A DNA stretch of 63,982 bases, filler included, from Hausera hauseri (taxonomy: Eukaryota): the NCBI GenBank assembly GCA_046269625.1. It is 12 parts of 12 records of this genome, joined end to end, with 100 filler letters (N's around TTAATTAATTAA, not from the genome) between each part and the next. Parts side by side here need not be neighbours in the genome. Positions count along the whole stretch, not along the records: positions 22,751 to 26,708 come from JBJURY010857856.1; positions 26,809 to 31,641 come from JBJURY010420698.1; positions 31,742 to 36,026 come from JBJURY010656886.1; positions 36,127 to 44,310 come from JBJURY010740986.1; positions 44,411 to 50,576 come from JBJURY010131539.1; positions 50,677 to 54,721 come from JBJURY010797201.1; 6 more parts are not named here. One strand, written 5' to 3'. Position 1 is the stretch's first letter, and each line of letters opens with the position of its first letter. Shown in pieces: positions 24,477 through 63,044 of this stretch. The translations under genes and the position numbers were made by a program. The notes below the pieces were generated by a model. It saw only the letters and a list, made by a program, of their open reading frames with translations, was not told the DNA's origin and ran no database searches.

Positions 24477-25790
24477 TTACTGGTCCAGACTCAACGGGAC
24501 ATGAACGAATTTGCCGGTGGTTCGAGATTTATAACGGATGGACTCCGGTTCATATACCTCTTCGTCGATGACTACGGTTTCATCGACCTGTATTTTCCTT
24601 TTCCTGGCACATATCGATGGTATTGGTGCTATTCGCACCCTATCGGGAGCCGCGTCAGTTAGGATTATTTCATCATTCCATTTGAGTTGACGATATATTG
24701 ATTGATAGCATTGCACCAGAGCGGTGCTGCGTAACGGAAAGCCCTTTGAATCGTAGAATTTGCGGGCTAATTCCTTATAAGTGTTGTTCGATAGTTGATA
24801 CTTCCGAATAACCTCCTCGTGATGTAATACATCACGAACTCCGGCTATTCGGCGCATTGGGCACTTGAGATGATTCACAATCATCTCGACCACATCGGCC
24901 CCGATGACAATCTTATCCGTTAATATTTCTGCTACTTTGTGATATACGTCCGGAGGGTCCATTTGATTGGTAATATTTATCTCTGCCAATCCGGTTATAT
25001 GACTATCAAAGTTGTTTATGCGTTGGCGAGGAGATACGATACTGTAGAATAGGGTGTTCCCCTGCACGTCAATTATTGATATTTCGATTGGCTGGAGTTG
25101 GTTCCACTGGTCATAGGCCAGATTGACGGCGGCTATGACCAGATCTTTGTCGGAGAACTGCTGGATACGTCTGTAGGGAATGGTTCTGTATTTGACGTAA
25201 TCAGGTTCTGGGAGATCGAAACATCTTCCGTTAGGTACACTTGGTTGGAATTTCTCTTTCTTTATTACTTCGATGGCTAATATGAGACGATTGGTGAGGG
25301 ATCGTAATTTCAATAAGTTTTCTTGCACAAAGGAATAGTCAAATGCCAATCCGTGTTCTGAATTCATATTAATGAGATCGCCTTTTATTGACGTTTTTCT
25401 GGCTGTTGTCTTGATGTGGAATTGGCCGAGTATACAATAAATGTTTATGGAGTGGTATCGCTCGGGAAGGATCATTATGTCTGTTAGATATAGCGATGTG
25501 GCTTTTGTTATTTGCAGTAGAGCTAAGGATCTGTTGGCCATGCTATATCCCTTTAAGTTATTTGGTATTTGCGATGTCTGTGGATAATTCAGACTGATCG
25601 TATGGTCGTTTTGTACTGTATAATATTGATTAGCCGGATTGGCGTTAATTATATGATTTTTCGCATTTCCATACCAGTGTTTAGACCTGGTAATTGATTG
25701 AACTTGATGAGAGGTTGAAGACGACACTGTAAATAGAAATGTCAATTGCAAGTTAATGTAGGTATCTACACACATCACAACGGTTATCAA
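24477..25790 (-). CDS. retroelement cargo region with a degenerate REX4/ISG20-like DEDDh exonuclease domain
   Basis: EISIIDVQGNTLFYSIVSPRQRINNFDSHITGL..VAEILTDKIVIG..VRDV (~24700-25150) matches the REX4-type scaffold, but the acidic catalytic residues are not evident. Same frame as 25908-26699. Confidence 0.6.
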   Translation of the reverse strand: MITVVMCVDTYINLQLTFLFTVSSSTSHQVQSITRSKHWYGNAKNHIINANPANQYYTVQNDHTISLNYPQTSQIPNNLKGYSMANRSLALLQITKATSLYLTDIMILPERYHSINIYCILGQFHIKTTARKTSIKGDLINMNSEHGLAFDYSFVQENLLKLRSLTNRLILAIEVIKKEKFQPSVPNGRCFDLPEPDYVKYRTIPYRRIQQFSDKDLVIAAVNLAYDQWNQLQPIEISIIDVQGNTLFYSIVSPRQRINNFDSHITGLAEINITNQMDPPDVYHKVAEILTDKIVIGADVVEMIVNHLKCPMRRIAGVRDVLHHEEVIRKYQLSNNTYKELARKFYDSKGFPLRSTALVQCYQSIYRQLKWNDEIILTDAAPDRVRIAPIPSICARKRKIQVDETVVIDEEVYEPESIRYKSRTTGKFVHVPLSLDQ

Positions 25791-25907
25791 ACATACAGTG
25801 GTAATCGTTGTAGTATTAGGGTTTAATTTATTTCTATAGATAACCTGATGACCTGTGGTTATCTTTATTAGAAGGGTTGCGTTGATAGCAATCCCTAAAC
25901 TCCACCG

Positions 25908-26708
25908 TCAGCTGGGACTAGTTGTGGCTAACGGATTCGTTAGCTCACGTAAGTTAATTCGTACCCAGTTTTGTCTTCTCTTGCGTCGTTGGCGTTGTAT
26001 CACCTTAACTAACATTACTGCTACTATCACTATTGCTATAGGGGTTATTGAACCTATTATAATCATTTCTAAACGGGAATGCTTATATTCTGTTCGCGAT
26101 GGTTCTTTAGTTGTCTTATTTTTAACTATCTTTAATCTGTACGGTGATTCTACTCTATTACCTTTTGTGATTGCAGACATTATTTTTGTGGAAGTTACTT
26201 TGTTATAGTCGTCCAGCAACTGCAAAATGACCGTATATTTCGTATCAGTCTCCAAGGCTGCACACGGCACTATCAGATCATCAGGGGTTATTATTCCTTT
26301 TGCTACTATAGTATCTTGCTTTTTACAAATAAATTTAATTTTTACGAAGTCAAGATCTGGTTTAACAGAGATTATTAGTGCAGTGGGAGCTGCTATAATG
26401 GTTACGTTATCCCAGATGGAGCGTTTTTGGCGATAGTAAGAAGCATAAGGTTTAATTAGAACAGTCATTTCTTTTTTATCGGCTGGGAATTGCACAAGTG
26501 GCGTCGTGATCCTCTCTTGTATATCATCATACTCTTTTTGGTTCTTATATCGTATAAACATCGTCGGTCCTTTTCTATGCCTTTTATTCTTGAGCTTTCC
26601 ATGCTCTTTCCGTGACAGAGAATATCTTACTTCGTATATTTTACCTCTTGTTACGTTACAGCAAACTTGTTGTTGTTCATCCGTTAATTCACATTTCAAT
26701 AGTCTTTG
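25908..26708 (-). CDS. FN3-like type I membrane protein (5' partial)
   Basis: CELTDEQQQVCCNVTRGKIYEV and PCAALETDTKYTVIL repeats, TM MIIIGSITPIAIVIVAVMLVKVI, stop-transfer QRQRRKRR; homologous to 44585-45780. Confidence 0.65.
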   Translation of the reverse strand, partial: QRLLKCELTDEQQQVCCNVTRGKIYEVRYSLSRKEHGKLKNKRHRKGPTMFIRYKNQKEYDDIQERITTPLVQFPADKKEMTVLIKPYASYYRQKRSIWDNVTIIAAPTALIISVKPDLDFVKIKFICKKQDTIVAKGIITPDDLIVPCAALETDTKYTVILQLLDDYNKVTSTKIMSAITKGNRVESPYRLKIVKNKTTKEPSRTEYKHSRLEMIIIGSITPIAIVIVAVMLVKVIQRQRRKRRQNWVRINLRELTNPLATTSPS

Positions 26709-27059
26709 NNNNNNNNNNNNNNNNNNNNNNNNNNNNNNNNNNNNNNNNNNNNTTAATTAATTAANNNNNNNNNNNNNNNNNNNNNNNNNNNNNNNNNNNN
26801 NNNNNNNNTAAACACTAGTTTCACTAACTAACAAGTAATAACAAAACTCATTATAATACAAATATTTATATCATTTATCATCTATAGGTAAGTGATTTTG
26901 ATAAAATAATTGTAATGTTTACATGTGACAGCGATGATAGCGAATATGAAGAAAAGTTATAGTTTTAATTAATTTTCACAAGAGTGTATAGCCCTATATT
27001 TACTTATATATACATATTAGTTTATCTTAGTTATCGGCGTTTCAATTAATATTACATTC

Positions 27060-27615
27060 GATTTTACATATCCTTTTTACTGATCGAGTTATCAGTTTAC
27101 CATCAACATGATCATTATAATACCGTCTTTTCTAGGGATTGTTTGCTTGATAATTCAGACTCTCCATTGATTTTGTTTGGTATCATAAACCAATAATTAA
27201 ACTTCGTCTCTAACATTGAGTTCTGTTATTTTGGTGCATTTCTTTGAACAACTCCGATACTCTGAGACTACTTCACGCCATCATATCCATTAATCACAAG
27301 CCAATCGCTATACATGTCGCCAAAGTGCCGCCAAGGAACGTTGATGAGTACCATTAATTTGGTTATTAATTTCTCCATAATAACCTGGTATGATGAAATG
27401 ATTCGGGAAAAATATAATATCATCTTTTGTATTCACTACAGTACTCGTAGTAGGTCTGGAGTTAACGATTCCTTCCACAATGGTTATCACTGTCCATAAT
27501 TCTTCTTCAGTTACGTTCGTCAGAATTTTATATCAGGTTTCCTTTGTTGCTTATATCATGATTTCAAAAATTACACGAAAATGTGCAGCTCCTGGCGGAT
27601 TAAAATCCATCGGAT
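27060..27615 (-). pseudogene. BEL/Pao integrase remnant
   Basis: FNPPGAAHF..FE, EEL.TVITIVEGIVNSRP, PNHFI, and a DUF5641-like downstream region with many lesions. Confidence 0.7.
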
Positions 27616-27740
27616 TTCGATTTACTGTAAATGTTGTCTTGCGGCATACATATCTGTGGTGCCCACATTGGCCCACCCAGAGAAACAATAATATATAAAC
27701 ATTAATTTTTTGTTTAAATATTTTGGAAATTTACAGTTTT

Positions 27741-27983
27741 TTAACAATAGAACAGCTGAATGCGTCAATTGACGCAAATGAAAAATTCAGTCTTTAGTAT
27801 CAACCGATATATTTATGATTGAACTTTGAAATTAAGTGACTTTTATTTTCCTAACGTCTCCTTACGGAAAATGCCAATGTGACTCTAACTGTATATAGTG
27901 CACACATGATGGATGAGTTTCTACCTAGAACGGCGATAAGCGTCAATTGACGCAATTATAAAAGAACACTTAGTTCCAGTTAA
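27741..27983. repeat. possible TTAA-type MITE with two GCGTCAATTGACGC palindromes
   Basis: TTAA|CAATAGAAC start, palindromes at 27761-27776 and 27940-27953, GTTCCAGTTAA end. Confidence 0.35.
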
Positions 27984-29564: not shown

Positions 29565-29601
29565 GATCGATGTTCCGGCAAACACTGCCTACTTCAGGAT
29601 C
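29565..29601 (-). ncRNA. degenerate minimal hammerhead ribozyme (Penelope pseudo-LTR type)
   Basis: Minus strand reads GATC-CTGAAGT-A-GGCAG-TGT-TTGCC-GGAAC-ATC-GATC. Confidence 0.5.
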
Positions 29602-29809
29602 TTTGGAGAACAGATTTTTTGAATTTAATATCATTTGGACATTGCGTAATATACACAACAATTTTATTTGTTTTCGTATGTAGATGGTTATGCCTGTCAG
29701 TTCGTTTGCTGCCTCTTTGTTATTTGTTTTCGGATTTTGTTGGTTGGTGTAAAGGGCGTTTAGTATTTGTAAGTCAACTGGATCATGCTCATATCCTTAA
29801 ATACTAACT

Positions 29810-30384: not shown

Positions 30385-30421
30385 ATACGGAAACTCCCCA
30401 AAAATCGATCAGTTCTCCGAA

Positions 30422-30458
30422 AATTCTAAAGAAGGTAGTGCCTGCCGAAACGTCGGTC
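30422..30458 (+). ncRNA. degenerate minimal hammerhead ribozyme, second copy
   Basis: CTAAAGA-A-GGTAG-TGC-CTGCC-GAAAC-GTC-GGTC; flanks are homologous to the inverted copy at 29525-29620. Confidence 0.55.
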
Positions 30459-30519
30459 AAAAACAAACACATTTTTCGGTATCGGTGTTGTTTGAAACGG
30501 CTTTCAAATGTTACATCAT

Positions 30520-34606: not shown

Positions 34607-35774
34607 TATTGGGTTGTTAAAAAGTTTCCGGCCCTTGCAAAAAACTCAAATTTTATGCGGATAAATTTATTTAAAACACGAACAATTATTCCTCAAAATA
34701 GATACTATCATTATCTACAACTTTCTGCCTTGGACTCCTTTGAATCGAAGACCTCTTGACACGCTAACCCCACTTCATCAAATGAATCGAATCGGCGACT
34801 CTTTAGAAAGTGTGGCATTAAGCAGAAAGGCTGTAGTCTGATGGAGCGCAATCTGGGCTATATGTTGGATGCGGAAGAACCTCGACGCCGTCCAACTCTT
34901 CGAACTTGTGCTTAGTCTTAGTGGCTGTGTAAGGCTTGGCGTTGTCTTGCTGAAACAAAGCGCGTTTTCGGTTGACTAATGCCGTGTACTTTTCCTTCAG
35001 CTTGTCGTAAACGCTGTCCAGTTGTTGAATGTAGAGATCGGCATTCATGGTGTGACCGTTCGAAACCAACTCTGAATGCAAGACTTCTTCAATGTTCCAC
35101 CAGAGGCACAAAATGACTTTCTTGCCAAATCGATCTTGCTTTGGAGTTGAGGGCGTTGTTTGACCTTTAAAAATCCATTGCTTGTCTCGATTGTTGCTGA
35201 CCAGATACACACACTTCTCGTCAAAGTAACAATCCGCTTCCAAAACTGATAATCCAATGGATTGTTGAGCAACCGACGGAAATTTCAACTCGTTTGGCAT
35301 CTTCAGCTAGGGTAAGTTCGTGCAGATCTTGTCGTGGAGTGCTTGACGAAGGTTCAATGTCCAATTCGGTTTGCAAATCTCGATCATCATACTTTGTCGG
35401 TCGACCTGGGTGTGGCTGGTCTTCCAATGTCTCAACGTCGTTTCTGAATTTGGCAAACCATTCCTTACCTGTAGATCGGCCAATTGTTCTCTTTCCATGG
35501 GCTTCATGGATCTTTTCGGCGCTTTCAGACGCATGCGTGCCCAATTTCCATTGAAAATGCAATAATAAGCGTTTTTGCTCTCGACTCAACTCCATTCTAA
35601 ACAACTATAGACGAATAATATAGTAGATCAATAATAATAACAATAGTAATATATCAGAATACGCGCAAGAAAACGGGCTTTCCGATTAAGCCAAAATCAT
35701 AAAAAATGGTTTGAAAATTAAGAACTTAATTTCATAAGTTTGCAAGTGCCGGAAACTTTTTTAAAAACCTAATA
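34607..35774 (-). mobile_element. mariner element with both TIRs and a disrupted DD34D transposase
   Basis: TIRs TATTGGGTTGTTAAAAAGTTTCCGGC..TTGCAAA and its inverse; HTH (WFAKFR..LEDQPHPGRP), KKVILCLWW, FQQDNAKPY, HPTYSPDCAPSDY. Confidence 0.93.
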
Positions 35775-36126: not shown

Positions 36127-36270
36127 TTGTCGACCTAATAAATATCCATCTAATATTTGACTAATTGTGTTTTGTTGATGTTTTGTCGACCTAATAAATA
36201 TCCCTCTGTTATTTGACTAATTGTCTTTTGTTTATGTTTTGTCGACTTGAAAAATATCCATCTAATAAAC
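36127..36270. repeat. ~56-57 bp tandem repeat (about 2.5 units)
   Basis: TTGTCGACCTAATAAATATCC..TTTGACTAATTGT units; a related copy lies at ~33780-33860. Confidence 0.75.
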
Positions 36271-38185
36271 GGTCGACATTTTTTGCGTATGTATAAATTT
36301 TCTTGGTGTATACGAAATGTTGAAAAGTTCGTCTAAAAATTGTCCGTTTTTAGCCACGAAATTCACCCACAATAAAACGACACTATATACAGTACATTTC
36401 AACGATAACCAGTGAAACAATAAAAGTCGAGAAGTTTCCTCAAAAATATGAATATATACACAAACGCATCATTTAGACGCAAAACGCATTTGAATACAGA
36501 AAAATCTTTCGAGTAATGGTACACATAGTTAGTCCTAACAGCCGAGTACTCGTCGGAGAACTTATAATCGCGTGTAGTTTTGAGTATGCCGGAAAAGTTT
36601 TTGTAAACAGCAGAATAAAGTACGCCGGTTCAAGTGCATCAGTAAATCACAAATACATTTATTTGCTGATGAAATGGTAATATCGAAGACGAGTTCCAAA
36701 AAATATAATACTGAACGATAAAGAATCTTACATTGACATCAATAATTCGAACAATGTCATTACCACGAGAAACGAGTTGAACACACTTACGTGGCTAGTC
36801 AAACATAAACGATCTGTCAAAACTGCTACATTCAGTGCACCTCATCATTCAATCGTGATAAAATTTAATGCCGCAACGAAACGTAATAAACGACCTATTT
36901 ACATCACCCCCAACTCTGTCCGTCCTTTCCTAACTAAATGCCAATTACAAAATGAACTAACTCGTTGCTAACAGCCGATCATATTCACGCTTATACTGAC
37001 ACTAAACAAAGTAACAAGTCGACACTACGAAACCGTATTCTTATGTTATTCATTTCCGGATGACTGTTTCTCATGTCCCCTGTACGTACCTCCTCTGTAG
37101 ATTCTGTCAATAATCACCATCACACTGGATACAGCGGACCCACAATTGAACTTAGTTTTGCCTCCAAGAACCGACATCCGCGCCTTCACAATGAAATTGA
37201 CATCCGTACTGATGTGACATTCAACAACAACAACACTGATAATAAAACCAACATTCGTAATACATCGAATATACCACACGGCAGCATAACCCTTTCTCAA
37301 AATGTCACAGACAAATGTCAGCCATACGTAAAGAAATTCTTCACTTTTCGATTCCTGAAACAACCGAAATCTCGTCAACAATGAATTAATAGACGAATAC
37401 GGTCACAATACCACTTTCGCCAACTTGGACAATTGTGCAATTAAAAATAAAAGGGATTTAAACAGAAATTTTACATCCTGCATACCCATTGATAGCGTCA
37501 CCACAAATATTCGAGAGACTCTTCTGTTGATTTTAGACCACATTCAAACGCAGCGAGTAAAGACCGATCGAATCCGATGATTCAATGAAGTAATCGAGGA
37601 TAATTTAAAGGATGTGGAAACGACATTGACGCTACTGGCACATATTAAAACGACTCACGACGTTTCGTATAACGCAAAAAATGCGAATATACTAAACTAC
37701 AACAAACAATTTCGAATAACTCCGATAAAACGTTCGACGCCTCCACAACTCTCACTCAGCTTATCTACAGTTTAACTTATTCTGCTCATCCTAGTTATGC
37801 ACTACGTCACGTCATCACATCCACCATCCGAGAATACGTACGCATCACAGATCTCAAACAGAAAACATTCACATTAGACACTGTAACTATGATGGAGATC
37901 GACGGAAGGGGGAGTTGACCACCCCGAAATTTCGGATTCCACGCGGCGGCACTGAATTTCCGGCCGCTCGCCCTAAGTCATTAGATCGGACAGCACGGTT
38001 CACGGGGACCCCACAACTCGCCCCTGGTTACACATCACCTCATTTTTTCTTTTCTTTTTTTAAATAATTTACTCATTCACTCTATCAAGACATCTTAAAT
38101 AAACAATACACAAATTTATAACATCAATGTACCTTCATCTGTTCATCTGACTTTTACGTCATACAACGTCTCTGACTTACCTATC

Positions 38186-41100
38186 GCTGGGACCCTAAAT
38201 CCTTTTTCACTTCATATCTACCTCCATATACACTTTTGCATCCGTCGTGGCATGAATTCATTGCCAACCATAGACACAATGGATAAATTCACCACGAAAC
38301 CAAAGCCCGTTATACTACTCCAAAATTCACTATTAGTACTCCTCCTGCTAATAACACATCAATTCCTACTTCTTCTGCTCCTTTCTTTCACTGCACAAAA
38401 TTCTTTGTCGACAACAAAGGTTTCAGCAAACCTGGTTGCAATTTCATCAACTCTGCTTACAAGCAAACAACGTAACCGATTCTTTAACGAAAGTATACAA
38501 CCTCCTTTTCTTACTCTCTAACACTATCAAACACGAATTCATAACATCATCCAAATCTTCGAACTGCGTCATCCGTATTCACAACTCTTCAACGCCGTTC
38601 TTATGATCTCAGATCCCTCAATGGACATTATCATACAACACTTCTTTTATGACATCGCCATAGGTACACAACGACCATCAGACTCCTTACTCAGTTCTTT
38701 GGCACACCTGCAAACCCTCAGCGTTACAAAAGAACATAATCCAGAACTGCTTCGTCATTACCTTCTCAACGCGTTGCCCATCCAAATTCGGGCCCCACTT
38801 ACCGTCATGGAGAACTCCACGGCTCTTGAAAAATGGCTGAATTATCCGGCAAGACACACAATGTTTTGAACTTAAACTCTCCATTAGTCGTTTCGGCGGC
38901 AGTTGCTGCAAATGGTATCCAAAGTAACAACGAAACGATAGAACAACAACCAAATTAGCTACGTGCTGAAAATACAGTACTGCACGCAACAATTAACAAT
39001 ATTAATAATAAATTAAATCAGCTTTTGTTGTCCCGCGGAAGAGATTTTGACGCTGATCGCACAAATTCTGTACCTAGAAACCGGTCACCATTACCCGCGC
39101 AATCGTCTGTCTACTATTATCACAGCAAATTCAATGAAAATGTCAAAAATGCTGCCTAGTGTGAAGATTTTACAATAAAAGCTTCTTTTCGGACACCGTT
39201 GTTTGCATTTACCACGCAAAGTTTAAAAATCAAGCTCACAAATGCATCCCAGGCTGCACTTTCAAACCCGATACGAACGACGGACGTGCTACCTTTCCTT
39301 CTAATAGCCGTCCTAGTTCACTTAAAAAAAACTAAGTTCGCCGCCAGAATTCACGGCAAACTCTGGCAAAGGCACTACTTTACTTTCTGAACGCCGACAC
39401 GTCTCTTTTGCTGTCTTTACTCTAAAGGCTCCAATCACCGCTCCTACAACGCAATCCGTTGACTTCCTCATTGATACAGGTGCAGCGATTTTTTTATTAC
39501 CACAAACTTTTCCTGTACCAAATTCACCATTCAGAATTAAGCCCTTATACACCGCTTCAGGTCAATCGCTGCACATTTCTGGCATGGCTAAACTATCTTT
39601 TATCTTACCAAAGTTTCCTTCACCTTTCCACTGGATATTCACAGCTGCTAACGTCCAGGCGGCAATTCTAGGGTCCGATTTTCTATCACATTATAATTTA
39701 CTGGTTGACTGCAGTCAACGATATCTGAGGAGCGGCATCACTGGCAGCGTTAATGAGCATATCAATAGCATTTCGACTACTGCTCAGTCTATAGAGACGC
39801 GGAGATCAATTTTGAGAAAACCAAAAACTACTTTGAATTTTCGTAATATTTCACTCCGTAAATTTTTAAATAATAATATTGAAATCCAGTCGAGGTTCGA
39901 TGTCTCCAATTGTGGTACTGTCACCAACGTTAATTTACTTGACGAAATCACTTCATTCAACACCATTTTCAATTCCACCATCTTACACCAAATACTACTT
40001 GACTGCACATCACCAAACAATTCACAAATTGCATCCGCTACTACTCAAACTGTTTCATCATCATCACCGAATCTCTCACAGTTGCCTATAACTTTACAGC
40101 AATTCGTCAACACATCATGTCCACGAATACTCAAAAAATATCGTACGTTTACTCCTGCAAACAGCACTGTACATCACATAATTACACAGCATCAACGACC
40201 AATATGCCAAAAGGTACGACCATTGTTACCTCGTCGTAGGCAGGCCGTAGAAGCCAAATTTCTTGAACTTGAACACTCCGGCATTGTACGCCATTCCAAA
40301 TCTCCTTGGTCGTCAACTTTACACATTGTACAAAAAAGGACGACACTTTTAGACCATGTGGTGACTACCGCCAGTTAAACAACTTGACGATGATGGATGC
40401 GTACCCCTTACCACTCATCATGGACATGTTACATCGCCTTAATTAAACTACCATTTATTCGACCATCGATTTGGCCAAAGCATACCACCAAATACCTGTG
40501 GCACCCGAAGACATAGAAAAGATTGCTGTCACTACTCCTTTTGGCCTTTACGAGTACCCGTTTATGTCATTCGGTTTGCGAAATGCCGTGCAGACCTTTC
40601 AGCGACATATCGATTTGATTCTCTCAGATTTTCCGTTCGCACACCCTTACATTGATGATATTCTGATCGTTTCGTCTTTAGACAAAACAACATGAGGAAC
40701 ATCTTCGCGCAATATTCCAACGCCTTAACCACTATAATCTCCAAGTCAATTTCGAAAAATGTCATTTTTTCAAAAAGCGCATCAATTTTCTGGGCCACAT
40801 TATTTCACTAGACGACCACTCTCCTCAACTAAACCGAGTTGAAGCCCTTAAGAATATCCAGTTACCACGTATGACCACTGAAATGCGCAATTTCCTTGGT
40901 ACTCTAGACTTTGTACATAAATATGTACCATATTGTTCTGAACTGATAGAACTATTTGCACACTTAAGTTGCGGCAAAAAACTTCAGACAATTCAGTGGA
41001 CACCTGCATTGGTTGATAAGTTTGATAAGCTACGCGAAGGAATTAAGACCGTCGACGTTCTCGCTTTCCCCAAGCCTGACGCGGAACTTATCCTTACCAC

Positions 41101-43203
41101 AGACGCTTCAGCCACTGCGGTAGGTGCTGTGATTCACCAAATCCACAAAGGAGAAAACCAACCGCTAGAATTTTTCTCTCGCAAGTTAACATCCCCTGAA
41201 ACTAGATATTCGACGTTCGATCGAGATTTATTGGCCATCGTTCTCGCTTTAAAGCATTTGTCCAACCTACTTGTCCCTCGCAATTTTACCATACCAACCG
41301 ATCACAAACCCTTACTTAACATCATGGTTATGAAACATTCTTCCATACGCCAAGAACGACAGATATCATATTTATCGACATTTAACTTCGACATAAAACA
41401 CATCAATGGGGTTAATAATTTGGTTGCCGATTTTTTATCCAGGTCGGTTAGTTCGATTAATTTTTCACCAATCTTTACGCAAGCACAACTTCAACAAAAC
41501 CAGCCACCTCAGGACATGCTTAATTCTTTCAAGTTTTGCACAATTCTTGACGACATGGCATTAGATACTTCCAAACCCGGTCATTCCGTAATAATTCTTG
41601 CACTATCATTGCAAAGGCAAGCATTTAATAGTGTACATTCGCTACACTACCTTGGTGCTAAAGCCACTTTTTGTTTACTCCACAAACAAGTAATTTGGTG
41701 GTCAATGCGTTCTGATGTGCATTCATGGGTTAAGGAGTGTGTGTCTTGCCAAAAATACAAAACAACTAAGCATTTAAAGCCACCACTATTCCACTTTCCC
41801 TGCACATCGCGTTTTGAATCCGTGCATATTGACATCGTCGGACCTCTTCTTCCAGACAACAATCAATTCATTCTCACCATGATGGATTGTTCCTCGCGAT
41901 GGCCAGAAGCCATCCCTCTGCGGAGCACAAATACCGACACTATAGCTGACATTTTTATTCGTACATGGATTAGCAGGTTTGGATCACTTCGTTTCATCAT
42001 CACGCACCAGGGTCCACAGATTGAATCCAACCTGTTCAAATCCCTTGTTAACCGACTGGGCATCCATCACATACATACTACGTCTTAACATCCCCAATTG
42101 AATGGCCTGCTAGAACGCTTCCACCGAACATCGAAAACGCCACTAAGAATCTTTGCAGAGTCCAACACTAGTTGGACGAATCTTCTTCCGTTTGTTCTGC
42201 TCGGCTGGCGGAACATTCCGTCTACTTCTACAGGATGCTCACCTACTGAAGCCTCATTCGGAGCTCCTATACAATCATTATTTGAACTTACTGTCCTGGA
42301 TGACACTCCCACAGATGAGACGATACGGGCAGCGCAAAATCACTTTGTTACGGTCAGCAAAGATTCGTTCTGAAGGTTACTCCATAAAGACAAAACATAT
42401 TTACCCGAAGATTTGTATTCGGCAAAATTCGCATGGCTAAAGAATCAAACGCCGTGCGTTTTTCAGCCGCGGTATCTGGGGCCCTATAAATTGGTACAAT
42501 TGCATTCACATAACGCCATTATTTCCAAAGACGGCAATAAACTTACAATACATATTACCAACTTAAAGCCCGCCTTCTTCGTCGATGACACTTCACCAAT
42601 CGATACGTCAACCCCTTTGCTCACTCCTACACTTCTTATTATTCCTATTTCTATCGCTACATCTGTTCCACCTCCTCCTTCTGCTTCTAGTTCTTCTTCA
42701 TCATATTCCACGCTTTCTCCTTCTATTCCTATCTGTCTTCCTATCTCTACCACTACCTCTGTTTCATCTACTTCTACTCTTTCGCCTAAAACTTTTCCAA
42801 TTTCCACGCCAACTTTTGTCTCTCCTCCTTCACCCACCACTGCACCTTTTTTCAGTCCATTGTCTTCTAACTCTCTTTCGAACACCTTCAACCATCTATC
42901 TTTAACAATCTCTGTTCCTCCTTCACCTTATTCTTCTCTTCATTCTGATTCGCCTTTGCACGACACAACACTTACAACAAAATCTGACAATATTTTTCCC
43001 TAGCTTCAACCTCTGCAAGCAAACAGACTGCATAAATACAAAATACGCAGAGTCACATTTAGCATGTATAGCAGGGGAAAATCAGTAGAAGGCACCCAAC
43101 GTCTTGTTCACACTATGACCAGCTGACACAGACACTTTTTCGTTTAGCGATTTTTTCTTTCCATCTTTTTTGATCTTTATAGCTTTTATTTTGCCACGGG
43201 GGG
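38186..43203 (+). mobile_element. near full-length decayed Ty3/Gypsy internal region (gag-PR-RT-RH-IN, S/P/T tail, PPT)
   Basis: Gag with CIYHAKF..AHKCIPGC knuckle, [58 protein letters not shown]; PPT CCACGGGGGG at 43194-43203 with no LTR after it. Confidence 0.93.
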
Positions 43204-44584
43204 TATTATTTATCATGTTAATTGAAGGGGCGAAATCCAGACGTGGCTCTGTTTGTTTCTCCACTAAAAACAAATCAAATGTGCATAACCTAGCTCCGAA
43301 CGAATTTCTCGCGATTAACATTGTCTTTTTATTTTAGATTCAATTACCAAAAACATTGAGATTTGTGGAATTTGAGAACAAAATAAATGATCTGAAATTT
43401 CCGTTATTCTGTAACTGTGCTTGTAATAAATGAGTCGACTATGTAAAATCCTCGTAAAGATTGAATTATGATTAAACACAGAATCTTTGAAATTGAAAAG
43501 AAAATAAATTGTTCAAAATTGGGTATGAAGATTCAAATTCGCACTATAAACTTTTTATTATTAAAGCAAAATTTTTTAAAACATTTAAAAGTAGGTCACA
43601 ACAAATGCCGTTTAAAAAGGGCCAACGAATTCGGCAACATAAACAAGTATAACAAATGGAAAAATTACGTTGGAGAAACATGGAAAGCGAATTAGTAGCG
43701 TGTCCAATAACTTTTAACAACCATTTGAAATTTGATCAGCGGAGATTGTTTTTAAATTAAAAAGGAAAAATTCTTCAAGGATCACTTACACTAAATCGTC
43801 AAGCGATACTGCTGTTTTTGGCTAAATTTTGATAGATAACACAAGACAACCCAACGGCAATTTCCTTTGTATAATCATTACGATCTGTATCATACAGTCA
43901 AACTTCCAAACTTCTACCATTTGCTTTACACAAACAACTTCAACATTCTTTGTCAAAACATTCAGGAAATATTTTATCAATTGATTATGTATAGTAACAT
44001 CCCATTTATCCTCCGTGTTTCAAACTATACACACATCGTTTCATTAAAGATCCTGCATTTACAACTATCTCTGAATATATCCAATTTAATTTGCAAGGGG
44101 TATTCTCTTTTACGAAATTATCTTTAATACAATTTACGTAAATCGGTAATTATTATAATACAATAAACATGGCCTATCTCAACAATATTTAACGAAAAAA
44201 GATTCTGTTTGTCAATGCCAATCAATTATCACATTCTCCATTTTTTTATCGTAGGGTCTTCCATTTCCCTGCAGCCGGATCGTATACACTGACTACGTAA
44301 TCCACTGGCTNNNNNNNNNNNNNNNNNNNNNNNNNNNNNNNNNNNNNNNNNNNNTTAATTAATTAANNNNNNNNNNNNNNNNNNNNNNNNNNNNNNNNNN
44401 NNNNNNNNNNGTGCTGCTGTAAGAAATTATCGATGTCGTAATTGGAAATGAGTGCTGGATTCTACGCCTTCTTGGCCATACTTACTCTGTTGGAATAAAA
44501 ATAAACGTTAATCCTAAGACAGATCATCGTTTTGAAGCAAAACACTTTTTTTGTCTGATGATAGGGTAAACCGATTTGTAGTTG

Positions 44585-46150
44585 TTAGGTTATGCTGTCA
44601 TAAAGTCCGTCTCGGTGTTCGTTTACCCATTTATCTCCTTTCTGAATTTTACAGCGCTTATTACAATTTTTGGAAAGTATAAAAATCGTCGCTGTTATTA
44701 TGACAAGAACGAAAATTGAGAAACTGAATTTAGCTATTATCAGTAAGTTATTTGGCTCAATAGAACTTTTCGTAGTAAGCACATTTTGGATACTAGGATC
44801 TTTATATCGCTTTATTTCAATTTCGTTTCCAAGAGTTTGTACTGTAAAAGTTTTAGGGTTTTTACCCTTTGCGGTGATTTTGACTATATAGTCATGTTGC
44901 GGTCGTAATGACCTGCATTCAGTTTCCTGACTCTTCTTTCTCAGGATCACAACTTGGTTGGTGTGCAGGGTGCGGCATTCAATTTTGACGTCTTGATTTA
45001 ACGTCTCTTTGGCGAAAAATAGAATTTTATCGCTTTTCGCCAAAATCTTAACCGGTATGCTTCCCGGCATTTCATCTGAAGTGACTATCGTAGTAGTGAG
45101 GTTGTACTCGGGACAGTGGACGGTCTTCCCGTAGTGGTTGGAAAGGGAAGCTTCCATATTCCGTTTTTTGGGCGATATCCCCGTAAATAGGTACTTTGCT
45201 CTCCGGGCTACGTATTATACAAATCGAATTGCAGCTGATACTCTTGTCCTAGTTGTAGTACACAGCACACAGTAGATCGGCGTCTGGGCAAATAACAGTA
45301 TTCCGGAATAGGAATTGAAGCATTTAATGGTGTAAATCGGACAGAAATTTGTCTGTCTCCAGGCAGTTCCACCTTAGTTTTGATTCGAATACATTGGTTT
45401 TTTAAGTCCTTTGAAATCCCAATAATGTTATAGTCTAAGAGTCTTTTAAATGGGTCAGTGCTTCGGATTATTTCGTCCGTCTTGGCTTGATTTGCGTCTT
45501 TCCGTAGAGGCATTCTTAGTTAGAGTTTCGTAATTATGTAGGCTTGAGCTCCAAACTGATTGTAATAAAACATTTGAAATCCGTACCCGTAGGCTTGTCC
45601 AAAATCCAAATTACAACATCTTTTGTGATGTCTGTACGGAAAATCGCACGTTCTCATCTTGTTTCCGGTTACAAATATTATTTGAAAATTTACGTGGCTC
45701 TGAATAGGTTTGCTTGCTTAAAACCATGCACATGGTTTGCTCCAATCCATATCGTGTACTCTAAGTGAGTGTAAGTTTTGGATATCCCTTTGTTTTTTCG
45801 CATATTGTAATTTTTCGATCTGAGTGATCGGTACATACGAAGCAATTAACGATAAGGCCACGACTATTTGCACATACGATATTGGTCTAGTCACTATCGA
45901 CGACGCTTTCTTTTCTTTATTTGTTTTGTTTTGACGCAAATTATAGCGTTTGTCTGGTCTTATTTCCGTATTAACTACTCTCTGGATTGATACGACCTCT
46001 TCCTTGCCGTTTTTATTTATATAAACTGTGGTTGGTGTAACCTTGGCAACTTCAAAAGGTCCTCTGCCTGTTCTAGTAAGTTTGAGAGATGTGCCTTTCT
46101 TCGCCACTGTATATTGTACGTAAACCCAGTTTCCTGGTTCTAAGTCGTGT
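44585..46150 (-). pseudogene. env-position extension of Gypsy Pol: signal-like segment, 3 FN3-like repeats, TM helix
   Basis: In frame after the integrase SH3-like end (GPFEV..VVSIQRV..RYNLR): VQIVVALSLIASYV; CDFPYRHHKRCCNLDFGQAY; CYLPRRRSTVCCVLQLGQEY; after a frameshift CRSLRPQHDYIVKI and TM FSFSIFVLVIITATIFIL. Confidence 0.7.
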
Positions 46151-46153
46151 GGT

Positions 46154-49100
46154 TTAGCCTTCTTTAGATAGTTCCTTGGCTATTTCCCAACATTTGTGCA
46201 ATCTCGATTGTAATACTTCGACAAAGTTTTGCTCTAAATCTTCCGTTCTTGTTGTGTATGGAATTAATCCTAAGTCCATAGGCAATACAGCTTCTCTGCC
46301 ATACATCATGAAAAATGGAGTGAATCCTGTCGTGGAATGTGGAGTATTATTAATTGCAAACTGTGTACCTTCTAAGAACTCATCCCAATCTTTCTGGTCC
46401 TTTGCGACTACAGTCGATAAGATTCTTATAACGGTTGCGTTCATTCGTTCAACCATTCCATTACATTGGGGATGATAAGCTGCAGTAGTAAGTCGTTCAC
46501 TTTCAAAAATTTTGGTAATTTTGTCGAACAATTCACTCGTGAAGTTTCTTTCTCTGTCTGTCAAGATTTGTTCGGGTGGCCCATATCTGAAAATGATTTT
46601 TTGGACTACCGCTTCGGCCAAGGTCTCGGCCTTTTGGTCTAATAACGCTATAAGTTCGACGAAATAAGTCAATCGGTCTACACAGGTTAAAATATATTTG
46701 TTATTCTTGTGGGTTGTAGGCAATGGTCCTACAATATCCATAGACATTGCTTGCATTGGTCTATCGGACACGTCGATAGGCTTAAGTTCGGCGATGTAAC
46801 TTTTTACTTTTATTTGTTTGGTTGCGCATACTTCGCAAGCATTTACCCAATTTTTCACATCAATGTAAATGCTTGGCCAATAATATTTATTCAAGATTCT
46901 TTCTAGGGTCTTTTTTCACGACATGTGTCCGGCTAAATACGAATCGTGTTCGGCCATTAGTACTTCTGAATGCAATCCTTTTGGTATGACTATCAATTTT
47001 CGTCCTTTTCGTTCGTAGTATAACACATTTTCGTGGTTCAAATCTCCAGCGACGCAGTATTTGTGATCATATCGTCGTAGATGTTTCCGTAACTGATGAC
47101 CTTTGGTGTTACCTTGGTATCAACGTACTCGATAATCTGTTGTATAACCTTGTCTTTTCTCTGTTCGACAGCAATCTTCAATGCATTATCCAGTGTAAGA
47201 GTTCGTTGTCTTTCTACTAAGTCTTCAAGGTGGGCTTTTATCATTACCGTAACTGCGCTTGTTTTGGTTTTAAGCCTCGATAATGCGTCGGCATTGACAT
47301 GTTTATTTCCGGGTTTGTATTGGAATTCAATATTGTAACGTGAGATTTCCTCAATCCATCTGTTAAGTCTACAGGTTGGATTATTCGCCCTACCCTCTAA
47401 GGTCGTCACTGCCTTATGATCGGTAACAATTATGATCTTTTGTCCATGGACGTACACGTTAAAATGTCGCAGCGCTTCTTTTACCGCTTGTGTTTCTAAC
47501 TCCGTAATGGAATAATTCTTCTCTGCTTTCTTTAAGGAACGTCCTCCGTATGCAGTTGGGTGTTCTAATTCATTGTCTTCTCGTTTTTGGTCCAGTTCAT
47601 ATCCGATACCTTCCTTACTTGTGTCTGTTTTGATTATGAACGGTAGGTTAAAGTCGGGTTTCCGTAGAACAGGTTCACTAGTTAGAATCTTTTTCATTTC
47701 GTCAAAAACTTTTTGTTATATATCGGTCCATTTCCATTTAATCCCTTTTTTGAGTAAGCGGTATAAAGGTGCGTTTATCTGGTACGTAGGTTGCATAATA
47801 CCCACATAGCCCCAACCAGTGTCTTAATTCCTTTTGATTTTGAGGTTCCATACAATCCAATATCTTACTCAATAATGATTTATCCGGTTTCGATCCTCCT
47901 TCTCCAACTATATGTCCAAGATACGATACAGCATTCTGAGCCCGTTTGCATTTCTTGGGATTCAATTTTAATCCAGCCTGCTTCAGTCTCATGAGTGTAC
48001 CTTCAATATCCTTTAGGTGATCTTCTTCCGTTTTCGACGCAATCATAACGTCGTCCAAGTAAGAGAATGCATGTTCCAATCTCATTAGCATCTTATTCAT
48101 CATGCGCGTAAAAATGGCTGGTCCGGTAGTTATTCCAAATGGCATAACATTAAATTTGTATATCCTGTCGTGTGTCTCAAATGCCGTTTTGTAGCGATCT
48201 TCCTCCTCTATCTCTACTTGCCAATATCCAGATTGTAAATCGAGCGTGGTAAACCATTTAGATCCCGAAAGTTTGTCCAAAGCTTCCTTTACCGATGGTA
48301 ACGAAAAAGAGTCCTTCATCATAAGTGTATTTAATGCTCGATAGTCGATACAAAATCGGTTCTTACTGGTACCTTTCTTCTTAACCATAAGTATAGGCGA
48401 GTACCAAGATCGGTAGCTTGGTCTTATTATGTCGGCCTTTAGTATTCGTTCAACCTCTTTGGTTATCTCTGGCCTTAACGAATGTGGAGGAGGATACAAT
48501 TTCGGCATCTTTTGATCCTCAAGATCTATTTCCTCGTTGGAACCAGGCTTTTTCTTAAGCGGAATCGTAAGTCTTAGGGCTCTGGCTCGGCCAATGTCTT
48601 CTTCGTTTCTCGCGATAATTGAGCTGTAGTGGCAAAGTATTTTATAAAATCGACAATATGATTCCGGTGAAATTTTAGTCTCAACATGGAGTGGAAATTC
48701 GGCACCCTTATACGGTTTCTCTTGTATAGTGATTGACGATACTCGGTACGCGTGTCCCAACGTGGTATTGGCATACAGTTTGATCGGAGTTGGTGCGTTA
48801 TTTGCTATTCTGATTGGCATGCGGCCTGTTAATACTCTTGTCAAAACCTTACTGAGCACAATATTTAGATTAAGCGATTCTTTCGGCTCGAAATATACTG
48901 GCTGATCGTCATCCTGACGTCTTTGGGCATATAGGAGTACTTCCGTTCTGGGCGGTATAGTTTCCTCCACTGGAATCCACACTTCTCCAAATTTTCGGTC
49001 TTTAGTGGTTTTAACTCCTTTTATTGGGCCTAGTTCTATCAACTTGCCGTCATTGAAATAGATTGCTATATTAGGTAGTAGTCTCAATAAGTCACACCCC

Positions 49101-49525
49101 AACACTACATCGTCCATTAATTGCTCCATTACTAAGAATTCATGATGGAAAGATTGTCCCATTATGTAAATTTCTGGTTTCCAACGGAATTTGCTTTTCG
49201 ATGATTGTCCGAAAGCTCCAGTGCTTCCTGGCTCTGTCGTAGGAGGTGGATATAATTGTTTCCGTAGGAATTGCGGTATTGAATCATATTTTATCAGTGA
49301 TATTTCGGATCCCGTGTCTATCAGTGCGTATACCTCCCAATCTTCTAATTGAATTTTTGCAAATGGTTTGCCTTTGATTACCGTACCGTAATAACTTGGT
49401 GCTGTTCTCGGATGTCTTACCGTAGACACCTTGGAACCGTTGATGGTAATTTCGGTGGTTCCAACTGGCTGTTCAACTAACTGTCTTAACTCTCCAAATT
49501 GAATATAGTTCGTTATTCGTACCAT
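46154..49525 (-). mobile_element. Ty3/Gypsy pol (PR-RT-RNase H-integrase), frameshifted; family distinct from 38186-43203
   Basis: ALIDTGSEISL, RFCIDYRALN, LDLQSGYWQV, YLDD, TDTSKEGIG, ELETQA, TDHKA, YYWP..C..C, MDIVGPLP, YHPQCNGMVERMN. Confidence 0.95.
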
Positions 49526-50676
49526 TTGTGTTTTCTACTCTTTGGTTTCTAACCGGTAGCTGAACATCTTGTGTTGGAACCCGACCGTTTAGTTGGGGAA
49601 TCCGGTCGAAATTCATTGGGAAAGGCGTAGGTGAAATATAAAAGGTGTATATAATGTATAAAAATATGTATATATGCATGTATATAGGCATGTTCATATG
49701 TTTTGATTGCAATGGTTGTATTTAAAATATGGGTTGTTGAGGGTCGGATTGTTGAATGAATATTTGTGATGATAAAATAAAATGTGTTGATAAATAAATG
49801 TGATTGTAAACAACTCCTGGCGACATTCGCGTGGACGGGCAGGTGGTGACGGTGGCATAAAGTCTAAGGAACAATTAAAGACTGTAAAGGAATTACTTCA
49901 TGACTTCCACAGCGCAAACGAGCAAGATGAATTGGACAAAACTAATGATACTATCGGTAATTATCGTGGCATTAAAGCACCTGATACTATTAGAAGTGAT
50001 TCAGAGTACAGCAAAACATTCTAGATGAGAGAGACTTATTCGAAGATGACATGTCTCTTCAAAACCCTCAATAATTAAAATTTTACAAGAACAAGAGGAG
50101 ATCGTGAACGGATGAGATAAAGGATTCGTAATATAAAGGAGGAAATTTATCGTGGTACGAGAAAGATATCATGTGTACCAAAGAGACGTTGGAATTTTAT
50201 TATCCAGAATAAGCACACTCTCAGGCTAGTAAATAAAGCCTCTAATTTTGTAAATATTCTGTCGCCAGGCGTAGATTTATAAGGCCTTTGCTATTTTAAC
50301 AAACTTCATTGCAGAGGACAAAAATTAAACAACGGATGCATAAAGCAGCAAAACTCAATTGTACTCAAAATGACGGAAAATGTGAGAAAAAACAGCAGGC
50401 TATAATTGCATACAAAATAACGAAACAATGAGGATAATATGAAAATCATCTTTTGCTTCCACCAAGAAATAAACCAAAATAAACCAAAATCATAACTACG
50501 TTCAGGCCAACGGATCAAATGCATTTAAAATATTATGCTTTATTTAATATTCTCGATTGAAAATAAATGTTGATTCNNNNNNNNNNNNNNNNNNNNNNNN
50601 NNNNNNNNNNNNNNNNNNNNTTAATTAATTAANNNNNNNNNNNNNNNNNNNNNNNNNNNNNNNNNNNNNNNNNNNN

Positions 50677-52066
50677 CAGCTTCACAATCCCATGCAAACG
50701 ACCAGTATTTACTACTGTCGTGTCGCAGATTATCATGCGTATATTTCCCCAAGCATCGTATTCATCAATCAGCTGATATAGTTCCTTGTGAATGGCCGCG
50801 GCAGAACCACTCTCACTTTTCAGAATACCGAGTTTGATTTCGGTTGTGATATTTTTCAGCAGAATTAATTGATACTCTTCTCCTTGGATTCTTTTACCAT
50901 CAAACTGGAGACAATAGGGATCTTTGCTTTGAAGTTTTTCAAAAATTTTGGTTTTCATTTCGTGTCCTTCCAAGATTGCTCGTTTCCAGACACCAGACTG
51001 ACTTAAAACCGGCACATCATGACTCTGTTCAGCAAAGGTTACAAGAAAGTTATGTGCTTTATGTGTTGAAATGTTGCTTTTCAGTATCAGTAAACTTGTT
51101 GTTGCAGTGCTTCCTCTTTTGTATTTCGGTTTGCATTTAGGAGACGATGATGCGGAAGAAGAAGTTGCAGACTGGGGCGAAGGGTCGGAGGCAGATTCAG
51201 AGAATGTATCATGTGTGGGTTGCGATTGAGAAGTGCTGGCTTGAGCTTGAGATGTTGATAGTCGAATTCGTTTTATTGAGTGGATTGATTCCAAAAGGGC
51301 TTGTTTGACCGTTGAATAACCAACCTTGCCTCTACTCTCAATTTGCCACTGGTACAACTCTCCAACCTCCGAGCTTCTCCATTGTCCATTCATGTTGGTG
51401 ACATCAAATAACTGAGAAAGTGTTTCAGTGAATTAATCAGACGATTTCTTCTTGTTTTTGTCATTTAAATCAATCAATCGATTGAGTTTCTTCCTGATGA
51501 ATGCACTGGATGGAAGAGGAAAGTCTAGAGTTCCCCTGCAGGGCAATTCTATATCCGTTATCACATTTTGTTTCTGTCCTGTCGCAGTTTTTCGCTATTG
51601 AGCAGAAAAGTGAAATTTCCAAGAATTTGGCGATTTATCGGCATCCGTGTGAGATTGGAGAGCTTTTCAACAGATGGAATGCTAGGATCTCTTTTCTCTG
51701 TAGAAGAGGAGGGTAGATTCTTCCTCCAAATAGACCTGTTTGCATTAACACTGCTGGTGAAATCTCTAGAAGACATTTCGTGGTGGTTTAAAAGTGATTA
51801 AATGACTTGCACTGAAAACTGGATAGTTTAAAAAAATGTTCTAAAATATTCCAGAATATTCTACATTATTCCAGAATGTTCTAAAATATTTCAATACGAA
51901 AACATAGTTTTGAAGATTTAAAAAAAATGAAAAAAATAAAAAGGGGGAACTTTTCTCAACTTCTTTTAAATTTGATGTTCCTAATGTCATCTGAATACAA
52001 TTGTTCCTCGAATATAAGGGGTTTCATTTTTGTACTGTAAAAAATTAAAAATAGTAATTACCCTAA
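50677..52066 (-). mobile_element. hAT-superfamily (hATm-like) transposon 5' part
   Basis: LQFDGK, GSAAAI..L..LIDEY, ICDTTVVNTGRLHG motifs; terminus TTAGGGT at 52066-52060 on the minus strand. Confidence 0.7.
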
Positions 52067-52076
52067 TGTAATACTA

Positions 52077-54075
52077 ATGATACAATTTAACCCAGAATTT
52101 GAAATTCTGGTACCAATAAAACATAGGGTAGACAAAGTGGCATACAATGACGCGATCAGAAGCTTACATATTGAAGTAAAATTATTGGACGAAAACCTTG
52201 TTCTGATAAAGGTTAACCACAATCCGAGCTGCGTAGAAATACGTTATCACCCAAGTATGCGAAGCAGACACAATTAAATTATACGACTTTCTTGTTGATA
52301 ATAACGATTAGCTCTGGTATTTTAGCATTCACAATCATATTATTATTGATGCATTGCACATATATGCGCCGACGCCGAAGACTGCATCTTAATGTCCTTA
52401 AAGTAACATTTAACACTGAACCATTTGAGGTCCTTATTAATAATTCAGAATATGACTTAGCAATCTACTGGGCGATGACAAATGGTTATTAATGATCAAA
52501 GAAGACGATTATTAGCTTTATGTAGAAAGCAATGATTAGCAAATTTTAACAAAAGTCGAACGCTAAATATTAGGATGTAACGGTAAACCGACTAATCTAG
52601 TAAAATAAATAACGCTGGAACAACTTTAATATTAGCTCTTGCATCAAGAAACGAAGTAAGAACCAAAAAAGCTATAACCCAACTGGGCGATGAAATATCT
52701 GAAGCACTCAAATTCAAAGATACAAAAGGAAATACCATAGTTTATTTACCTATTATGGACGAATGTCATGATTTCTTCATACATATGCTTATCCAGTTGC
52801 AAGCCCTCTTGCATCTACCTAATACTGATGGAGATATTCCCTTATTACTCGATATACGATATGGCCAGCATAATTTGGCAACTCTAATTTTTGACTATGC
52901 TTACGACAACGAAGCATTTCTGGCTATTTACCAACCACAATTACGCAGTACCCCATTATACTACGCAGTAGTTTTCAACGATTTCTCTTATTAGAAACTT
53001 TCTTGAACAAAAAATTAGAAAATGGTATCTACATATTTGACGTAAACTACGCTTATGTTACGTATGAAAAACTCCTCATAACCTCGCTCTTAAGTCGAAT
53101 CTATGGGGCAGTCTCCATCCTGATGCAATGACCAGACATCCTTCTTGAAACTCACAATTACCGAAATCTAAAAGTCAGTGACATTTTAGTACATGTTCCT
53201 ATGATCAGCTTTTCGAACACGAACACCTACAAACCATTAAAGTTATTGATTGTTTCTGATTGGAAAACACCCCTTGCAGGCATTACAGACGATCTTACAT
53301 TGAATAAAATTGATAATGAAGACTTTTCACCCCTCATACAAGATTATTTAAAAAATAAATTTATTATAAAGACACAACTAGATTTATTCCTATGTTCGTT
53401 AAAACTACCCATCTCCCATCATCCAATCGTTGCAAATTTCTCAGCAGATCCAGTTCTTACAATTCGTCGAAGCGAACAACTGTTACAAACCACCACTATC
53501 CCTATTTTACATCATCCTTAGAACAAGCTCAAATACTTTAGCAATTGTACAATTATCTGAGAGATTCTTACTATATCGAAGACACTAATAATAATATAGA
53601 TTTTAGTATTATTGAATTGACCTTCCTTTTTATCAGATTATTCCCAATGCATGGAGTGCCGAGTAATTCTTGAAGTGATACACCGACTCACCCTATGTCT
53701 ATACATACTATGTTTATTCCGTATATATCGAGTTAAATTACAAGCAGATACAACACCACGTTGCCCCACATATAAGTTCGAAATTAAATACTGCATTAAA
53801 CATGATGCTTCTCCACCTGATGCTTATGAATTCTTACTCGACGTTACAACACTTGACACTCTTGAATTACCTGATGATATAGCGTATTACTACACCTGTA
53901 ACCATAAAACCCCTTTTCACTTCCTTACGTCCAGCTCAATATGTGTTATATTTACCATAAACCCAATAAAACAGCCTATAATTTTAGTTGTTGCAACGCA
54001 GAATGTTGTTCTCATTGTTACCAGATGGATTCCCATCATCGATATTTAATCTGCAGTTTATGCTATTATTGCGCT
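52077..54075 (+). pseudogene. decayed intronless TM + ankyrin repeats + two RING-like fingers
   Basis: TM LIITISSGILAFTIILLLM + RRRRR; ankyrin-like KDTKGNTIVYL, PNTDGDIPLLL..YGQHNLATLI, STPLYYAV; RING-like CMEC..C.Y..C..R..CPTY and CVIF..CCNAECCSHC..CSLC. Confidence 0.55.
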
Positions 54076-63020: not shown

Positions 63021-63044
63021 AGGATGTTAGAGCATCGCGTCAAG

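Follow-up and report, generated by a model that had tools for sequence, protein, structure and literature searches.

We analyzed a 63,982-nucleotide stretch of DNA (the window) from the Hausera hauseri assembly GCA_046269625.1, which comprises 12 contigs of 4-8 kb with N spacers between them and holds abundant transposon debris according to Pfam, and we concentrated on 3 unlinked loci in contig 5 (22751-26708), contig 9 (44411-50576), and contig 10 (50677-54721). Contig 9 holds a Ty3/Gypsy retrotransposon in a decayed state. With moderate confidence, we favor the interpretation that a gene directly downstream of its integrase encodes a single-pass membrane protein with 3 predicted FN3-like domains, and that contigs 5 and 10 probably represent 3' ends of diverged relatives with further accessory genes.

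Pfam domains place the contig 9 pol gene on the minus strand in the order protease (PR), reverse transcriptase (RT), RNase H, and integrase, spread over several frames (Table 1). A segment of 95 codons following the integrase core matches the integrase C-terminal region of 2 metagenome Gypsy loci (L002 and L003), and this C-terminus reads in frame and stop-free into a hydrophobic signal-peptide-like segment, confirming the claim of an earlier, sequence-only reading of the window that 1 of the 3 loci is physically joined to Gypsy Pol. A purine-rich tract followed by TG lies ~30 bases past the stop of the ectodomain gene, with the contig end ~130 bases beyond the tract, as a possible polypurine tract (PPT) and start of the 3' long terminal repeat (LTR); the tract has 1 C inside it and a strict PPT scan did not detect it. 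No dUTPase was found in contig 9 with Pfam. A broken coding-like stretch (49800-50320, plus strand) runs opposite to pol at the expected gag position and had no Pfam match in the 1 frame scanned.

The last 209 residues of the contig 9 protein, searched against 1.84 billion representatives, gave 3 matches (P0001, P0002, and P0003), and we dropped P0003 as a homolog, as it is a tandem-repeat protein with only a few residues matching. P0002 is an unbroken protein of 479 amino acids with a signal peptide, 2 Cys-Cys repeats and a helical linker, a Ser/Thr stretch, a third repeat, a transmembrane segment (TM), and the tail Y-D-R-I-T. The Cys pattern and C-terminus are kept in the intact P0002 and the partial P0001 at 35-44% identity to contig 9, where the tail reads Y-D-S-I-T (Y-G-R-I-T in P0001), and the similarity between repeats 1 and 2 of contig 9 was reached in 0 of 1000 shuffles. 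Because P0001 and P0002 end at the same Y-x-x-I-T stop, the contig 9 C-terminus is natural and untruncated, with no effector after it, and the unknown or truncated module that the sequence-only reading had placed there falls away. Between them, contig 9 and P0002 present a signal peptide, a TM anchor, and a position after pol. On its 4939-base contig, P0002 was predicted as a protein of its own, which argues against an obligatory fusion of the ectodomain gene to Pol and does not settle the point. Like P0015, an ankyrin protein described below, P0001 and P0002 are single-contig records that may come from the same host as the window; with all 3 possibly from one host, they are no evidence of wide spread.

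We consider an FN3-like beta-sandwich a fair prediction for the ectodomain, though not proof of its fold. Fold searches with the models of contig 5 and the contig 9 family point to beta-sandwich repeats. For the P0002 model, the best Foldseek rows were mostly FN3, none of them at E <= 0.001, and a wide fold search gave a best Z of 6.5. In the single-sequence model of the contig 5 ectodomain, residues 97-182 gave a Z of 8.6 with IL20R2 (root-mean-square deviation 2.6 over 83 residues), 8.2 with fibronectin, and 8.1 with CD45, level with the 8.7 reached by a bacterial Ig-like domain. The best ESM Atlas matches for this ectodomain were FN3+TM proteins at 0.92, and their recognition value was low. 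The Pfam fn3 family (PF00041) stayed below its cut-off, the best case being P0001 at 13 bits against a cut-off of 25, and a BFVD fold search returned generic beta-sandwich matches and no specific viral source. Further, no Pfam fusion-protein family matched contig 5, contig 9, P0001, or P0002 in the same scans that found the gB-type env (PF24664) in contig 4 and in the metagenome locus L012.

The sequence-only reading had described an ectodomain, a TM, and a basic stop-transfer segment on all 3 contigs. Each does have a 19-residue TM (mean Kyte-Doolittle hydropathy, KD, of 2.85 in contig 5, 2.53 in contig 9, and 2.68 in contig 10) followed by basic residues, and the pattern by itself is weak, with 5 matches in the 6 frames of the window, 2 of them outside the 3 loci. 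The motif C-x9-CC-x-[LV]-x2-G-x2-Y, which was drawn from these same sequences, occurs 3 times (contig 5 once, contig 9 twice, contig 10 never) and in none of 200 shuffled windows. A profile of 7 repeats taken from contig 9, P0001, and P0002 only gave contig 5 a score of 21.6 bits, compared with at most 11.5 among 1000 shuffles, and contig 5 was its best non-self match (E 5e-4) in the 72 frames covered by the window profile scans, in support of the FN3-like repeat that had been proposed for 2 of the loci. The relation extends to contig 10, a link absent from the sequence-only reading: P0002 matched 52092-52241 with a score of 81 (0 of 5000 shuffles; best tile elsewhere 51 among 4368; profile E 2e-4), in an ectodomain remnant of ~50 residues directly upstream of the contig 10 TM and in a different frame from it. 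The 2 best non-self matches of the contig 9-family profiles lie in contigs 5 and 10, both times on the correct strand and ahead of a TM. These comparisons support the view that all 3 loci touch one ectodomain family, via short matches. With the module in 3 of the 12 contigs, it may be abundant in the host lineage; the ectodomain profile found no match on the other Gypsy pieces of the window (contigs 2, 8, 11, and 12).

Repeat depth supports contigs 5 and 10 as mobile elements. We mapped Logan contigs from 4 runs labelled as different organisms (X1-X4) on both contigs, counting the relatives of contig 10 at 80% identity; X1 may be the source sample, and its summed depth is not a copy number. 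No RNA run was among the runs listed. Over contig 5, X1 depth stayed at 1-7 across the host exon region and was 270-11030 between 23675 and the contig end, a step that marks a multi-copy repeat ending in an intron, and X2, X3, and X4 covered 26, 19, and 16 of 30 bins, respectively. The neighboring exon is bounded by GT-AG and most like tyrosine hydroxylase, and we therefore take the host to be an animal. On the minus strand, a purine tract followed by TG lies ~680 bases upstream of the terminal CA, so that the repeat end fits the layout of a 3' LTR, with no partner LTR or target-site duplication within the contig. Just before this end is a TGG-led stretch (23684-23693, minus strand), odd at a 3' end, which resembles a tRNA primer-binding site, putatively that of tRNA-Ala.

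Over contig 10, X1 depth was 870-4300 in the ankyrin region, 2750 in the second Cys cluster, and 6-31 in the TM region, and a scan of this contig gave no PPT and no TG...CA LTR ends. A very deep repeat occupies its end (54537-54721; 1500-3700 in X1), where contigs continue into other flanks; it may be the start of an LTR or a separate insertion. The contig 10 tail looked ankyrin-like by eye, and a search gave no such match. The separate repeat at the other end of contig 10 had no Pfam or PHROG match. Of the large LTR elements put forward by the sequence-only reading, LTR-element status is shown for contig 9, by its Pol, and not for contigs 5 and 10, whose mobile status is supported by repeat depth; their large size finds no support in these contigs of 4-6 kb.

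Several results weigh against the interpretation that we favor. For contig 9, no Gag was matched by Pfam upstream of pol in 3 frames of 49552-50576, the contig ending 1 kb upstream, and a 5' LTR was not recognized. For contigs 5 and 10, there is no Pol inside either contig (contig 5 breaks off within the ectodomain, and another repeat adjoins the contig 10 cassette), and no Gag, LTR pair, or target-site duplication was found within them. The matches linking contigs 5 and 10 to the family are short (26-31 and 50-55 residues, respectively), and hhalign against the contig 9 alignment gave a probability of 21% for contig 10 and 2% for contig 5. Shuffle comparisons of contig 5 were weak with the contig 9 repeats (18 of 1000) and with repeat 3 (579 of 1000), the repeat-3 profile was likewise weak on contig 5 (276 of 1000), and contig 5 and the contig 10 remnant had no mutual match (4854 of 5000). 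The models are of low confidence (mean pLDDT 46 for P0002 and 52 for the contig 5 ectodomain, in which residues 97-182 are better), and unrelated bacterial Ig-like domains reach equally high top Z values.

These points leave some room for unrelated origins, in which only contig 9 would be a Gypsy element, contigs 5 and 10 would be other mobile classes (such as Ginger-type or Polinton-type DNA elements) or an expanded intronless host family, and the FN3+TM arrangement would be convergent or separately captured. The lack of a Pol linked to contig 5 or 10, the low hhalign probabilities, and the lack of DNA similarity among contigs 5, 9, and 10 fit such origins, and FN3+TM is a very common animal architecture. 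However, the 2 best profile matches in 72 frames fall upstream of a TM on the correct strand in these contigs, the Cys-Cys pattern with its helical linker is not one detected by Pfam fn3, and a PPT-like tract and TG/CA ends are present in contig 5; we hold this explanation to be unlikely.

The copies also bear marks that could be read as passenger capture, that is, retro-copied host gene fragments carried without function: stops and frameshifts break all 3, and the exonuclease-like domain of contig 5 lacks catalytic acids in this copy. Against this, 17 of the 30 copy differences in the contig 5 ORFs (open reading frames) are synonymous, compared with 8.5 expected (p 0.001; 7 and 3 in shifted frames), which suggests selection on the family; these 30 belong to 40 differences listed of 766, and the limited listing counts against our interpretation as well. 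The intact 479-residue homolog keeps the cysteines and the tail at ~35-39% identity, and the contig 5 and contig 10 cassettes are present in all 4 runs labelled as different organisms. We consider passenger capture quite improbable.

Downstream of the TM, contigs 5 and 10 differ. The contig 5 ORF contains half a Cys-Cys repeat, an RQKR site (which we take to be a furin site), one beta-sandwich, the TM, and a basic tail, and an exonuclease-like domain starts ~290 codons and one stop past the TM. This domain is RNase_T-like (ESM 0.94, 27 of 30 matches RNase_T; phrog_192 E 0.0023; PolC exonuclease E 0.3), and the ExoI D-x-E catalytic acids are absent from it in this copy. The ankyrin repeats of contig 10 had P0015 as their sole match among 331 candidates (72% identical); Pfam recognizes Ank_2 in P0015 (1e-14) and gave no match on the contig 10 copy itself. 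For the second Cys cluster of contig 10, a Gag zinc-knuckle was considered and set aside, its spacing fitting a RING better, by eye only. Of the modules named in the sequence-only reading, the pseudo-exonuclease and the ankyrin repeats are therefore borne out, the former as an RNase_T-like domain without D-x-E and the latter through P0015, whereas the RING assignment is weak (BRCA1 E 0.57).

That reading had further joined these modules to the ectodomain as swappable cytoplasmic effectors. In this explanation, one polypeptide would link the FN3 ectodomain and TM to exchangeable effectors (a pseudo-exonuclease or an ankyrin-RING ligase) that manipulate the host cell. The contig 5 exonuclease stretch does share the TM frame behind a single TGA, the ankyrin match of contig 10 begins ~80 codons past the TM although that copy is broken in many places, and the ectodomain is common to all 3 loci. 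However, contig 9, P0001, and P0002 stop after a short tail, P0015 is a stand-alone ankyrin protein of 236 amino acids without TM or RING (albeit called on a 1695-base contig), and contigs 5 and 10 have nothing in common beyond the TM. In contig 10, relatives at 80% identity are few for the TM region and many for the ankyrin region, and stops or frame breaks separate the TM from the downstream domains in both contigs. We consider chimeric receptors of this kind unlikely, with fusion possible for contigs 5 and 10, and the claim of swappable effectors is not borne out. Our best reading of the downstream domains is that they are separate accessory ORFs. A bolder version appears unlikely: a Gypsy lineage with a third type of env-position protein, an FN3 receptor mimic, made into chimeric receptors by attaching cytoplasmic modules (a nuclease-dead RNA-binding domain or an ankyrin-RING ubiquitin ligase), so that transposons would encode their own signalling receptors.

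Under the interpretation of an FN3-like surface protein encoded after pol, the membrane protein would enter the secretory pathway, the Cys pairs of its ectodomain would form disulfides, and the protein would be displayed on the cell surface or a particle membrane, all of which would follow from the established properties of type-I membrane proteins. By its position and its likeness to Env and sORF2, it would most likely act as an attachment or adhesion factor rather than a fusogen, and would put a cell expressing the element, or a particle, in contact with its neighbor; a receptor-decoy role is possible. The Y-x-x-I tail, presumably a sorting motif, may direct sorting of the protein. As for the exonuclease-like and ankyrin/RING genes, they would most likely be separate accessory ORFs, gained in different lineages between the membrane-protein gene and the 3' LTR.

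We searched for relatives of the module outside the window. None was found in viral contigs, the contig 5 ectodomain matched no metagenome contig and 0 of 1280 candidates among proteins of 467-2000 amino acids, and the contig 9-family alignment recovered only P0002 itself among 4600. The contig 9 RT identified 22 metagenome loci, with a best identity of 49-51%. The ectodomain scored meaningfully in none of these 22 (one row at E 0.41), a weak test because only 6 of them extend at least 1 kb past pol. In one of the metagenome loci, L012 (7166-10585), Gypsy pol precedes a gB-type env and one more ORF, an ordinary errantivirus layout that can serve as positive control; an ORF of equal length is present in L013.

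Table 1. Features annotated in contigs 5, 9, and 10, with positions counted along the window
Contig	Feature	Positions	Strand	Evidence and remarks
9	Gypsy protease and reverse transcriptase	47738..49534	-	Pfam RVP 1e-5, RVT_1 1e-37
9	RNase H, frame differs from RT (broken copy)	47038..47715	-	Pfam RT_RNaseH 1e-29
9	Integrase zinc finger and core	46154..46915	-	Pfam Integrase_H2C2, rve
9	Integrase C-terminal region, frame-shifted relative to core, open into signal peptide	45895..46179	-	tblastn to SH3_Tf2-1 region of L002, L003; frames
9	Hydrophobic signal-peptide-like segment	45826..45882	-	KD 1.89; aligned to P0002 N-terminus
9	Two Cys-Cys FN3-like repeats and helical linker, two in-frame stops	45211..45825	-	35% to P0002 over 292 columns
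9	Third repeat, TM (44690-44746), tail ending Y-D-S-I-T-stop, other frame	44585..45214	-	P0001 44%, P0002 39%; shared C-terminus
9	Purine-rich tract then TG, possible PPT and 3' LTR start	44545..44556	-	By eye; contains one C
5	Ectodomain-TM ORF, cut by contig end, ends TGA	25908..26708	-	CC motif 26634-26693; RQKR 26421-26432; FN3-like ~26163-26420; TM 26007-26063; basic tail
5	476-codon stretch, same frame after one TGA: ~250 unassigned codons, then DEDDh/RNase_T-like domain (~24700-25150)	24477..25907	-	ESM, profiles
5	Non-coding repeat end, putative 3' LTR	23679..24367	-	Purine tract 24359-24367 then TG; AATAAA near end; terminal CA at 23679
5	Single-copy host exon, tyrosine-hydroxylase-like	23274..23498	+	Contig 5 repeat ends in next intron, antisense
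10	Separate repeat, transposase-like frame (class by eye), upstream of ectodomain remnant; end approximate	50677..52000	-	X1 depth ~85-390
10	Open stretch of 75 codons, in which 52092-52241 matches the contig 9 family (linker and beginning of repeat 2); frame differs from TM	52044..52268	+	P0002 match
10	TM (52292-52348), R5 stop-transfer, ~35-residue tail, stop	52217..52492	+	Hydropathy, frames
10	Ankyrin repeats, frame-broken	52596..53209	+	72% and 69% to P0015
10	Degenerate RING-like cluster 1	53642..53806	+	BRCA1 RING E 0.57; no Pfam match
10	Second Cys cluster, RING-like spacing by eye	53944..54063	+	Multi-copy in 4/4 runs; no Pfam match; zinc-finger match only, E 1.2

Other mobile elements were identified elsewhere in the window. 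Contigs 1 and 2 hold decayed, cross-matching type-B DNA polymerase genes (PF03175; 1605-3400, plus strand, and 7437-8454, minus strand), which we assume to be Polinton-like, and a Mariner-type transposase remnant (PF01359) lies at 34821-35604 on the minus strand. A second Gypsy family without the ectodomain occupies contigs 8, 11, 12, and 2 (36127-44310, 54822-59845, 59946-63982, and 10500-11461, respectively); contigs 8 and 11 are 66-81% alike, the family is ~30% alike to the contig 9 Pol, and contig 8 has a Ser/Thr/Pro-rich tail after the integrase. Contig 4 carries a broken gB-type fusion glycoprotein gene (16941-18842 and 21091-22650, both minus strand; PF24664, E 9e-27 and 5e-13) and no pol. 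Upstream of this gene is a 519-codon ORF with a weak ubiquitin-like match (E 0.05), a pairing that recalls the Ubi2/SUMO and env of Burro as described in PMC6431247.

Among known systems, the sequence-only reading had likened the loci to the giant planarian Burro and plant Ogre elements. According to PMC6431247, the likeness lies in Gypsy elements with ankyrin and RING-type extras, and the in-frame env of their polyprotein offers a precedent. The comparison fails on layout: Burro exceeds 30 kb and carries its extras and a gB-type, mononegavirus-like env upstream of pol in one polyprotein, with a dUTPase between PR and RT, whereas the contig 9 cargo lies 3' of the integrase, no dUTPase was found, and the contigs here are 4-6 kb.

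The errantiviruses, env-carrying Ty3/gypsy elements surveyed in PMC13524379, likewise have a Gypsy pol followed by a glycoprotein gene with signal peptide, ectodomain, and TM. In that survey, env falls into 2 types, paramyxovirus F-like and herpesvirus gB-like, whereas the ectodomain described here is predicted to be FN3-like and showed no homology to a class I F or class III gB fusogen in the Pfam scans. The LTR elements of bdelloid rotifers, according to PMC5408684, have variable and independently gained accessory ORFs after pol, their diverse ORF3 including DEDDy exonuclease, GDSL, and TM ORFs. The bdelloid exonucleases are DEDDy, with catalytic residues intact and without a TM, and the word "fibronectin" does not occur in that text, whereas the contig 5 domain is RNase_T-like, has no ExoI acids in this copy, and follows an FN3-TM gene. 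In MDG1-group elements, as presented in PMC11952523, sORF2 is likewise a non-Env membrane protein in Gypsy and a precedent for Env-independent cell-to-cell transfer; it is a short FAST-like fusogen, whereas the contig 9-family protein has an ectodomain of ~400 residues.

The literature searched, mostly outside subscription papers, Repbase, and supplements, gave no FN3-type ORF in a Gypsy element, and supplementary element lists could hold such a case. The genes described so far in the env position of invertebrate Gypsy elements encode F-type or gB-type fusogens, short FAST-like proteins, or enzymes. A surface protein of FN3 repeats, apparently under selection in multi-copy families, would extend this set by a receptor-like class missed by env-directed screens. 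It would also provide a testable case of how retroelements that lack a fusogen make use of the cell surface, and of how genes are gained in the interval from pol to the 3' LTR. In our best reading of the comparison, LTR elements with accessory 3' ORFs are already known, and what would be new here is a predicted FN3-type surface protein in the env position, unlike F- or gB-type Env, with a variable 3' accessory region.

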